In this document: positions 7,496 to 8,097 of the stretch, piece after piece
Numbering within the stretch: position 1 is the first letter of the stretch
Layout of the letters: every line of letters starts with the position of its first letter
From: Escherichia phage PhiR40_1
Reading direction: 5' to 3' (one strand)
Length of the DNA: 42,251 nucleotides
Sequence record: PV340560.1
The notes under the pieces: generated by a model
The model's database searches: none
What the model saw: only the letters and a program-made list of their open reading frames with translations
Told to the model about the DNA's origin: nothing
Made by a program: the position numbers and the translations under genes

Positions 7496-7905
7496 ACAGT
7501 TTAACGGCAAATAACCGTTTGTCGCAACAGCTGGTGGTCAGTGTCGCTGAACACCTGTTGTTACGGTATGAATGCAGATTACCAAATCACCTGGCTGTAA
7601 GTAACCACAGAGAACTTTACCTGACTGTGGGGGGCGAGTTGTGCAGGAACTTAACCGCTGGTTTCGTGACGGAAGAGGGCTTTATGTCCATGTTATTCGT
7701 TGGGAGCCAGAAACACAGCGCGTTATCTATCTTCGCAAAGACTACCCGCATGAGTGCTTTAGTCCTTTGTGGAAATTCAGGCATGATTTTGTTGAGTGTG
7801 AAGGACCACCAGCACATTGATTCTGCCATTCCGGGACGTTACACTGTTCAGGCACCTTATAAAGCGGGTGCCGGGCGTGGAAACCCGGAATTCACCAAAG
7901 CGCAC

Positions 7906-7928
7906 AACCGCGCTCTTGCGGTTTTTTT
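7906..7928 (+). terminator. Candidate early-right terminator (AACCGC-GCTCTT-GCGGTT + T7); loop carries boxA-like CGCTCTT
   Basis: Hairpin + T-run; lies inside the implausible N-terminal extension of ORF 7492-8643. Confidence 0.45.
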
Positions 7929-8097
7929 GTGTAATGAGCAGCATTACGCCCAAATTATGGTGGGGCGTGCAGGGCCAACTTCGGTTGGGCCGGGTTCTTT
8001 GGTGACCGGTATTTCCACCCCTGTACGTCTCACCACCAATAAGGTCGTGGAAAGCCTTGGTGGTGAGTTATTAAAAATCACCAAAGAGGCTGCCATC

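Follow-up and report, generated by a model that had tools for sequence, protein, structure and literature searches.

The 383-codon open reading frame (ORF) at positions 7492-8643 of Escherichia phage PhiR40_1 (PV340560.1; the window is the whole analysed stretch of 42,251 nucleotides (nt)) raises the question of what precedes its Rha domain, i.e., whether the region 7496-8097 encodes an N-terminal extension of the Rha protein or holds something else that was joined to it by gene calling. Based on the comparison of homologous loci, we consider it very probable that this region consists of a small DUF4222 gene and an antisense-RNA switch that controls the true rha gene, with no N-terminal protein extension. 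The switch is of a known kind, represented by P1 immI, P4 CI, N15 immA and Gifsy-1 isrK-anrP, and it is routinely mis-annotated. The RNA families, the covariation of their folds, the three-way co-variation of the recognition segments, the conservation of the promoter and the module boundaries were all computed here, and coding constraint was found in DUF4222 and rha only. An earlier, sequence-only reading of this DNA had listed the long ORF, a Shine-Dalgarno (SD) sequence and ATG for rha, a terminator, a CCGGG hairpin, a UUCG hairpin and an ORF with a GTG start, and each of these features was found where it had been placed.

An Rfam scan of the whole window returned exactly two matches at or above the gathering score (50 for isrK and 45 for C4), which were isrK at 7852-7928 and C4 at 7953-8040. 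The same two families in the same order also match the P4, N15 immA and Gifsy-1 loci, and the succession of isrK, a complementary C4 element and an antirepressor-like gene is the one that is found in the isrK (RF01394) loci, a family of small RNAs that is also characterised by Hfq binding and by activating translation in trans. The hairpins that were noticed in the sequence-only reading are more than chance structures, because the terminator and the CCGGG hairpin lie within the isrK match and the UUCG hairpin lies within the C4 match. The elements of this isrK-C4 cassette and its targets are as follows:

7817-7845, plus strand: candidate cassette promoter with the -35 hexamer TTGATT (7817-7822), a 17-nt spacer and the -10 hexamer TACACT (7840-7845), proposed from conservation, on sequence only

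7852-7928, plus strand: isrK-family leader or small RNA (Rfam RF01394, 67 bits)

7852-7871, plus strand: isrK hairpin 1, with covariation

7871-7888, plus strand: isrK hairpin 2, the CCGGG...CCCGG hairpin, with covariation

7877-7883, plus strand: a1, GUGGAAA, in the loop of isrK hairpin 2, complementary to a'

7892-7900, plus strand: b1, UCACCAAAG, just 5' of the terminator, complementary to b' (duplex -15.1 kcal/mol)

7906-7928, plus strand: isrK intrinsic terminator, AACCGCG..TGCGGTT at 7906-7923 and a run of seven T at 7922-7928, found in the terminator scan

7953-8040, plus strand: C4-family antisense RNA, the counterpart of P4 CI, N15 CA and Salmonella STnc1160/'orf45', with a long basal stem enclosing two stem-loops (Rfam RF01695, 83.6 bits)

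7957-7959, plus strand: AUG in the 5' strand of the C4 basal stem, in frame with rha, at +106 from the isrK start

7996-8005, plus strand: b', UCUUUGGUGA, the loop segment of C4 stem-loop 2 that is complementary to two sites, b1 and b2, and co-varies with both

8012-8018, plus strand: a', UUUCCAC, single-stranded, 3' of stem-loop 2, complementary to a1 and a2 and co-varying with both

8047-8053, plus strand: a2, GUGGAAA, in the rha leader, complementary to a' and located in the loop of a possible alternative hairpin at 8029-8067 (-20.9 kcal/mol)

8078-8089, plus strand: b2, UCACCAAAGA at 8078-8087, overlapping the rha SD sequence AAGAGG at 8084-8089, complementary to b' (duplex -15.3 kcal/mol)

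The comparisons were based on two samples, an alignment of 21 distinct full-length homologous sequences (82-99.5% identity) and about 120 cassette loci that were obtained by scanning viral contigs for a C4 core pattern, which fixes the UUCG loop and GCCGG. In the isrK part, hairpin 1 was 96.5% paired and all six of its pairs co-vary, while hairpin 2, in which the CCGGG hairpin proposed earlier was recovered, was 97.4% paired and also showed covariation. The terminator with its T7 run, which had likewise been proposed from the letters, is part of isrK; its helix was poorly aligned by MAFFT (65% paired), and its conservation was assessed by eye. Additionally, a permissive scan gave a sub-threshold match to Rfam RF03163, 'a1, b1 targets of C4', at 7839-7891. 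The C4 match spans the full length of the model (1-87), and this segment alone folds at -44.6 kcal/mol (z = -4.1). Its stem-loop 1 is the UUCG-loop hairpin at 7973-7991 that was described earlier, and a conserved ..CACCACC.. is visible in its 3' strand. Across 62 distinct sequences, 95.6% of the cells of the C4 fold were paired, compared to 36-47% in the controls with slid partners, and 14 of the 27 pairs had changes on both sides. Cells with compensatory changes on both sides numbered 244 against 79 in shuffles, although these shuffle counts are not probabilities because the homologous sequences are related by descent and were collected with a pattern.

The recognition segments gave the clearest result. 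Among 92 distinct loci there were 40 types of b' and 25 types of a' in 53 combinations, and both target pairs changed along with them. The cognate b'-b2 helix had a mean length of 10.4 nt compared to 6.5 nt for the non-cognate pairs, and it reached at least 7 nt in 99% of the cognates. The overlap of b2 with the SD sequence of the downstream gene is the same layout in the homologues. The a and b segments were also observed to assort independently, e.g., contig L112 has the b' of the window with another a', which suggests a two-part address code that may have been reshuffled by recombination. Moreover, tandem isrK-C4 cassettes with different a'/b' were found 650-870 nt apart in several phage contigs (at 7044 and 7913 in L057, about 4678 and 5337 in L013, about 3666 and 4322 in L014, and about 7844 and 8497 in L047), as if orthogonal addresses allowed two switches to coexist in one genome.

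The candidate promoter has a predicted start near G 7852, the first nucleotide of the isrK match, and its -35 hexamer overlaps the stop codon of the DUF4222 gene. Its hexamers and their spacing are invariant among loci that have unrelated DNA upstream of the -35 hexamer; a module boundary lies just 5' of this hexamer, and the homology to many phage contigs starts at 7806-7816. From this conservation we infer a promoter at 7817-7845 upstream of isrK.

The coding capacity of the region was assessed by counting the variable sites at codon positions 1/2/3 in the 21 homologues and applying a chi-square test. Three segments flank or precede the cassette or follow it:

7496-7640, no strand assigned: spacer of 145 nt with no coding signal

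7641-7820, plus strand: DUF4222 gene, 59 amino acids (aa), with a GTG start after a run of six G and a frame that differs from that of the long ORF, as identified by Pfam, phrog and codon positions

8098-8643, plus strand: true rha gene, 181 aa, with Phage_pRha at aa 21-106, as identified by Pfam, TIGR02681 and codon positions

In the spacer, the counts in the fused frame were 14/17/14 (p = 0.82), 31% of its sites vary, which is more than in the flanking genes, and neither the terminator scan nor the Rfam scan found an element in it. The counts in the fused frame were similarly even over 7821-8097 (23/29/28, p = 0.68). Between 7641 and 7817 the excess of variable sites falls on position 2 of the fused frame, and in the own frame of the DUF4222 gene the counts were 5/5/19 (p = 0.001). 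The 59-aa product matches Pfam DUF4222 (PF13973) with 50.9 bits against a gathering score of 27 (E = 1.1e-13) as well as phrog_1343 (E = 3e-36); elsewhere, the gene occurs as a separate module (7639/7642 to 7803/7812), and in a sibling prophage it was annotated by PGAP, the annotation pipeline that called the long ORF. On this sequence evidence, 7641-7820 is a real small gene for a DUF4222 protein, and the 59-codon ORF, which had been named as the only other coding candidate, is the sole real coding sequence (CDS) in the interval. In rha itself, the counts over 8098-8640 were 50/32/107 (p = 3e-11), i.e., the rha frame has codon periodicity and the fused frame upstream of 8098 has none. The protein matches Phage_pRha (PF09669) with 107.5 bits (E = 5e-31) and TIGR02681 from aa 12. 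The proposal that rha has an SD sequence and an ATG of its own held, with AAGAGG lying 8 nt before ATG 8098, which is in frame with the long ORF.

Module boundaries also fall within the long ORF, at about 7640, about 7810 and 7852; it covers at least three modules, each of which assorts on its own in other phages. In many phage contigs homology was confined to the stretch from 7806-7816 through 8414, while in P4-like elements it extended from exactly 7852 to 8037 or 8090. The genes that lie downstream of the same cassette elsewhere are unrelated to one another; they encode antirepressors with P22_AR_N and Bro-N domains, P4 epsilon-like 'Derepression' proteins, Icd-like peptides and a Tad2-like protein. 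The codon-position statistics, the gene in another frame, the module boundaries and the varied downstream genes thus bear out the false fusion that had been suspected for the 383-aa ORF. As one unit, ORF 7492-8643 almost certainly results from gene calling, and the real gene is judged to be 8098-8643 only. Since the stop codon of the preceding ymfL gene overlaps ATG 7492 as ATGA, gene callers begin the long ORF there. Of the pattern expected for a conserved 383-aa protein, i.e., an open frame with synonymous-site variation, the homologues have the open frame, but the excess at third positions is absent from 7496-8097. Insertions and deletions were of no use as a test of the frame in the full-length homologues because there was a single 6-nt deletion in 7496-8097.

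Several observations weigh against the RNA switch as the full account of this region, in addition to the caveat on the shuffle counts. None of the full-length homologues, which go down to 82% identity, closes the long frame; in a rough null model obtained by simulation, the probability of an open frame was 0.12-0.35 per lineage, so that the three lineages taken together are mildly unexpected, which is not decisive. A sigma-70 scan of 7400-8200 found no promoter at the scan threshold, and the candidate fits 8 of the 12 consensus positions. The duplexes of this single sequence were only modestly better than those with shuffled targets, which did as well in 6 of 500 cases for b' and in 37-45 of 500 for a'; the energies of this one sequence are therefore not primary evidence, and the strength of the argument lies in the comparison across loci. 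Finally, the frame of the C4 AUG is open from C4 to the start of the downstream gene in 59 of 65 distinct leaders, compared to 39 and 16 for the other two frames, and this preference is a hint that part of the region is in fact read by ribosomes.

The switch would work in the following way. Transcripts would start at about 7852 from the conserved promoter at 7817-7845, and most of them would be stopped by the intrinsic terminator, giving a 77-nt IsrK-type RNA with a1 and b1. The transcripts that read through would hold the C4-type RNA (7953-8040), which would be cut from this precursor. Its b' and a' segments would pair with b2 and a2 in the rha leader, and because b2 overlaps the rha SD sequence, the translation of rha is proposed to be blocked. 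The coupled downstream genes, orf74 and the replication genes, would probably be silenced as well via polarity or premature termination. Free IsrK, by its a1/b1, would in turn bind a'/b' and act as a decoy that relieves the block. The processing of C4, the translational block, the downstream polarity and the trans-activation by IsrK are all proposed by analogy with P1, P4, N15 and Gifsy-1. The terminator may also gate rightward early transcription, as the CI RNA does in P4, because the cassette precedes the coupled rha, orf74 and replication genes within the early-right operon.

Two further structures were seen in the folded leader. Instead of closing the C4 basal stem, the 3' strand of this stem (CUCACCACCAA) can pair with UUGGUGGUGAG at 8057-8067, which forms the -20.9 kcal/mol hairpin that has a2 in its loop; the complement that is required for this hairpin was also seen in the N15, P4-like and Gifsy-1 loci, and the hairpin may be another fold that the transcript adopts when it is not processed. 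In the folded leader (8060-8092), b2 and the SD sequence were also locally paired with CUUGGUGGUGA (8056-8066), and the predicted fold suggests that the ribosome-binding site of rha may be masked in cis even without C4.

The arrangement in the window can be compared with the studied systems, in which the Rfam matches and the reading frames drawn over them are:

P4: isrK at 8615-8692 (seqA leader) and C4 at 8420-8507 (CI RNA region), with an obsolete 'cI' CDS over C4

N15 immA: isrK at 1983-2058 and C4 at 2084-2171, with 'gene 32' drawn over C4

Gifsy-1: isrK at 34316-34240 and C4 at 34214-34131, with anrP directly downstream

The closest parallel in layout is Gifsy-1, in which Hershko-Shalev et al. 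(2016, PMC4825925) showed that isrK is transcribed from a promoter of its own and ends in a leaky terminator. The mRNA that reads through was translationally silent and the short IsrK switched its translation on in trans, while STnc1160, an RNA of roughly 80 nt, was processed from 'orf45', whose nucleotide sequence is conserved and whose amino-acid sequence is not; the authors likened IsrK to the SeqA RNA of P4 and STnc1160 to its CI RNA (PMC4825925). Gifsy-1 and the window share the Rfam families with their order and spacing, the position of isrK and C4 directly before an antirepressor-like gene, the a1/b1, a'/b' and a2/b2 complementarities with b2 beside the SD sequence, and an AUG in the 5' stem of C4, which in Gifsy-1 is the first AUG of orf45 at +107. 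They differ in that the regulated gene of Gifsy-1 is the ORF6N-family AnrP rather than Phage_pRha, and orf45 ends in an AUGA that overlaps the start of anrP, whereas here the same frame continues into rha. Moreover, the Gifsy-1 cassette follows the Q gene in the late region, while that of the window belongs to the early-right operon, with the cII-like gene on one side and the replication genes on the other; isrJ lies downstream in Gifsy-1 and was not found here in the Rfam scan of the window; and the a and b sequences are different, i.e., they have another specificity. Compared to the studied systems in general, the window has no separate upstream ORF or icd gene, and the frame of the C4 AUG runs into rha.

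In P1 and P7, C4 reportedly pairs through a' and b' with targets both upstream and downstream of itself, an arrangement said to go back to Citron and Schuster in 1990. The heteroimmunity of P1 and P7 is due to specificity variants of C4, and the mature C4 RNA is cut from a longer precursor, with RNase P acting at the 5' end in P1 and P4. The window fits the Rfam family that was built on the C4 of P1/P7, and the immI operon (c4 - icd - ant1/2) resembles it in having two recognition segments with upstream a1/b1 (RF03163) and downstream a2/b2, b2 at the ribosome-binding site of the first gene, a regulated gene of the antirepressor type (a putative one here) and specificity variants. However, icd lies between C4 and the regulated gene in P1/P7 and is absent here, the upstream target copies are packaged here in a terminated small RNA (isrK), and the regulated protein is Ant in a plasmid prophage rather than a Rha-family protein in a lambdoid one. 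The mechanism of P1 C4 is outlined in PMC8198154, which cites Citron and Schuster (1990). For P4, whose immunity region is ordered seqA - CI RNA (seqB) - seqC (Deho/Ghisotti group, cited in PMC4825925), PMC4825925 describes an antisense RNA with pairing sites to its left and right, and premature termination that prevents the expression of the downstream replication genes. The window resembles P4 in that replication genes lie downstream in the same operon and an obsolete protein ORF over the RNA ('cI gene product AA 1-137') matches Pfam Phage_ASH. Since the cassette sits in the early-right operon before the coupled replication genes, this suggests that a P4-like gating of these genes may operate here. 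Unlike the window, P4 has no separate protein repressor and its CI RNA is the immunity factor, and its first downstream gene is epsilon, with another reading-frame relation. Because this prophage has a cI-like repressor, the RNA switch would be a secondary circuit. In N15, the anti-immunity locus immA reportedly consists of a small processed CA RNA followed by icd and antA/antB (Ravin et al. 1999, cited in PMC4488713). Its DNA is 70-73% similar over isrK and C4, the isrK match ends at the 'putative rho-independent terminator' of the N15 annotation, and the operon under the control of immA encodes antirepressors; it differs in its downstream genes, which are icd-like and a Bro-N antirepressor, and in the 'gene 32, transcriptional repressor' annotation, which is an ORF over the RNA.

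The best-surviving alternative, which is compatible with the RNA switch, is that the region is used twice. Ribosomes would start at AUG 7957 on unprocessed read-through transcripts and produce a 228-aa extended Rha, or their passage would simply open the leader for the translation of rha, and translation and C4 processing would be the competing fates of one transcript. We regard this as rather unlikely. It draws on Gifsy-1, in which the translation of orf45 was shown with a tag and was needed for the translation of anrP (PMC4825925), and on the C4 AUG itself, which 72 of 79 distinct loci possess; in addition, the 1-nt and 2-nt length changes of L031/L112 together preserve the frame. The open-frame counts and the example of orf45 therefore leave room for a translated upstream ORF from AUG 7957, which would add 47 residues to Rha. 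On the other hand, 33 loci have this AUG in frame with the downstream gene (relation 0), 30 have a relation of +2 and nine of +1, and seven have no AUG, so that an in-frame fusion is not conserved. The leader substitutions (8/14/12) have no coding pattern, 60% of the leader sites vary, and AUGG is fixed anyway by its basal-stem pairing with CCAC; these data, together with the varying frame relation, argue that the product of such an ORF would be unselected. Moreover, no recognisable SD sequence precedes AUG 7957, while that of rha is strong. A broader form of this idea, namely that the frame is open because ribosomes traverse isrK/C4 either from the C4 AUG or, on early-right transcripts, from the ymfL-coupled AUG 7492, with exclusive fates for each transcript, appears a shade less probable still. 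If it were true, one fate would be the C4 repressor RNA and the other would be translation that destroys the RNA structures and brings ribosomes in frame into rha; 'Ash', the Pfam domain assigned to this part of the ORF, would be a translated, unselected peptide, and the switch would be a coding/non-coding bistable element, of which roughly 50 a/b address combinations would let several share a cell.

It is very unlikely that the 383-aa ORF encodes a genuine two-domain 'Ash-Rha' protein, as in the PGAP call and in papers on Rha/Ash-domain proteins, with the RNA-like hairpins being incidental. Residues 117-213 do score 57.5 bits with Pfam Phage_ASH, whose gathering score is 26; comparable fused ORFs, 340-402 aa long and 66-82% identical, are known; as described above, no full-length homologue has the frame interrupted; and the overlap of ATG 7492 with the ymfL stop is typical of translational coupling. 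However, the Ash profile coincides exactly with isrK and C4, and it fits equally the obsolete 'cI' CDS of P4, whose known product is an RNA (PMC4825925). The absence of a third-position excess from 7496-8097 while the overlapping DUF4222 frame has one, variation that tracks RNA pairing, a frame that is closed before the start of the downstream gene in 10 of 72 loci and lacks its AUG in seven, a loop of b' that differs in length by 1 or 2 nt between loci, and the module boundaries within the ORF all speak against a protein. A real Ash-Rha fusion was rejected on the module boundaries, the codon positions and the coincidence of the Ash profile with the RNA cassette.

The sequence-only reading had regarded the interval as a regulatory one of the tR1/nutR type. 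Its regulatory nature and a functional-looking intrinsic terminator were supported, but a lambda-type nutR/tR1, in which boxA/boxB recruits an N-like antiterminator ahead of a terminator overridden by N, is scarcely credible: the early-right operon does have a terminator after the cII-like gene and ahead of the replication genes, and CGCTCTT, present at 7911-7917 in the loop and stem of the isrK terminator hairpin, agrees with lambda boxA at 7 of 8 positions, yet of 96 distinct homologous contexts only 10 have this motif, the window sequence shows no boxB-type hairpin behind it, the terminator is intrinsic whereas lambda tR1 is Rho-dependent, every hairpin is explained by the isrK and C4 models, and the cassette has its own conserved candidate promoter and also occurs in P4, N15 and the late region of Gifsy-1, outside any early-right operon. 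As a homology, nutR/tR1 was ruled out by the non-conserved motif and the lack of boxB; as a functional analogy, i.e., a terminator that early-right transcription has to pass, it is possible.

The window represents the CPS-53/e14/mEp460 type of lambdoid prophage, and its bases 7400-8700 are identical (100%) to E. coli E138 and its bases 7830-8200 to phage mEp460. The local order is cI-like, cro-like, ymfL and the 383-codon ORF, followed by genes with overlapping starts and stops that lead into the replication genes:

5901-6593, minus strand: cI-like repressor (S24/XRE)

6691-6951: cro-like gene

6944-7495, plus strand: ymfL, cII-like gene (NCBIfam YmfL equivalog, E = 1.8e-50; Pfam Phage_CP76; called ymfL by PGAP in the identical E138 prophage)

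7492-8643, plus strand: annotated 383-aa 'Rha family' ORF, a PGAP call of the whole ORF

Downstream, rha, the 74-aa ORF, a helix-turn-helix replication gene and a PerC-family gene form one coupled chain through ATGA/GTGA overlaps at 8640-8643, 8861-8864 and 9676-9679; the rha stop overlaps the next start (ATGA at 8640), and the 74-aa ORF overlaps the start of the replication gene at 8861. The PHROG relatives of Rha are labelled 'anti-repressor' or 'transcriptional regulator', and by analogy with the P1, P4, N15 and Gifsy-1 systems Rha may be antirepressor-like; a sequence search of the PDB with Rha found no relatives. In contig L010 (2013-2267), the gene directly behind an isrK-C4 cassette encodes a domain that resembles Tad2 (Thoeris anti-defence 2; E = 4e-6), and this anti-defence gene may be under the same kind of RNA switch.

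The Ash domain itself deserves a closer look. Residues 117-213, which match Pfam Phage_ASH (PF10554), correspond to nt 7840-8130, i.e., isrK, the spacer behind it, C4 and the leader. The profile also matches ORFs over the cassette in a Shiga toxin (Stx) phage 'antirepressor', phiP27 L16 and N15 gene 32, the 'ash family protein' called by PGAP in a sibling prophage and the obsolete 'cI gene product (AA 1-137)' of P4. The Ash matches overlie the cassette at 7840-8130 in the window, 8168-8584 in L127 (P4), 2100-2390 in L006 (N15) and 2884-3429 in L002. Position 48 or so of the profile is the C4 AUG, and the profile gave no match in L025, L102 and L033, in which the frame is broken and the RNA is present. 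Phage_ASH does not evolve in the manner of a coding sequence, as judged from the 23/29/28 distribution over 7821-8097 and from a frame that is shifted, closed or without its AUG in many loci. PHROG 821 and 995 likewise include the spurious extension. Pfam Phage_ASH, the NCBI 'ash family protein' and PHROGs 821 and 995 hence appear, from their correspondence with the cassette, to have been built on the conceptual translation of an isrK and C4/CI RNA cassette. RefSeq still lists the P4 'cI gene product (AA 1-137), transcriptional repressor' and the N15 'gene 32, transcriptional repressor' over the RNA. In the literature, Ash was discussed as a protein domain of unknown function in the regulators of Shiga-toxin phages (PMC8951638) and was used as a marker for P4 epsilon (PMC8628076); the true P4 epsilon family is PF25738. 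The fused 'Rha family' CDS was found at a coverage of at least 80% in 555 of 5426 complete E. coli genomes as well as in many phage records, in which it is labelled regulatory protein Rha, peptidase or antirepressor. In contig L112, the cassette frame is open for 1251 nt upstream of the C4 AUG, which would give an even longer spurious fusion with an upstream gene.

The main value of these findings is corrective because RNA switches of this kind are already known. A specificity code is suggested by the many a/b combinations that co-vary and by the contigs with two cassettes of different address. The cassette points to an RNA-controlled antirepressor circuit, which possibly extends to replication, in mEp460-like and Stx-type prophages, and such a circuit is relevant to prophage induction.

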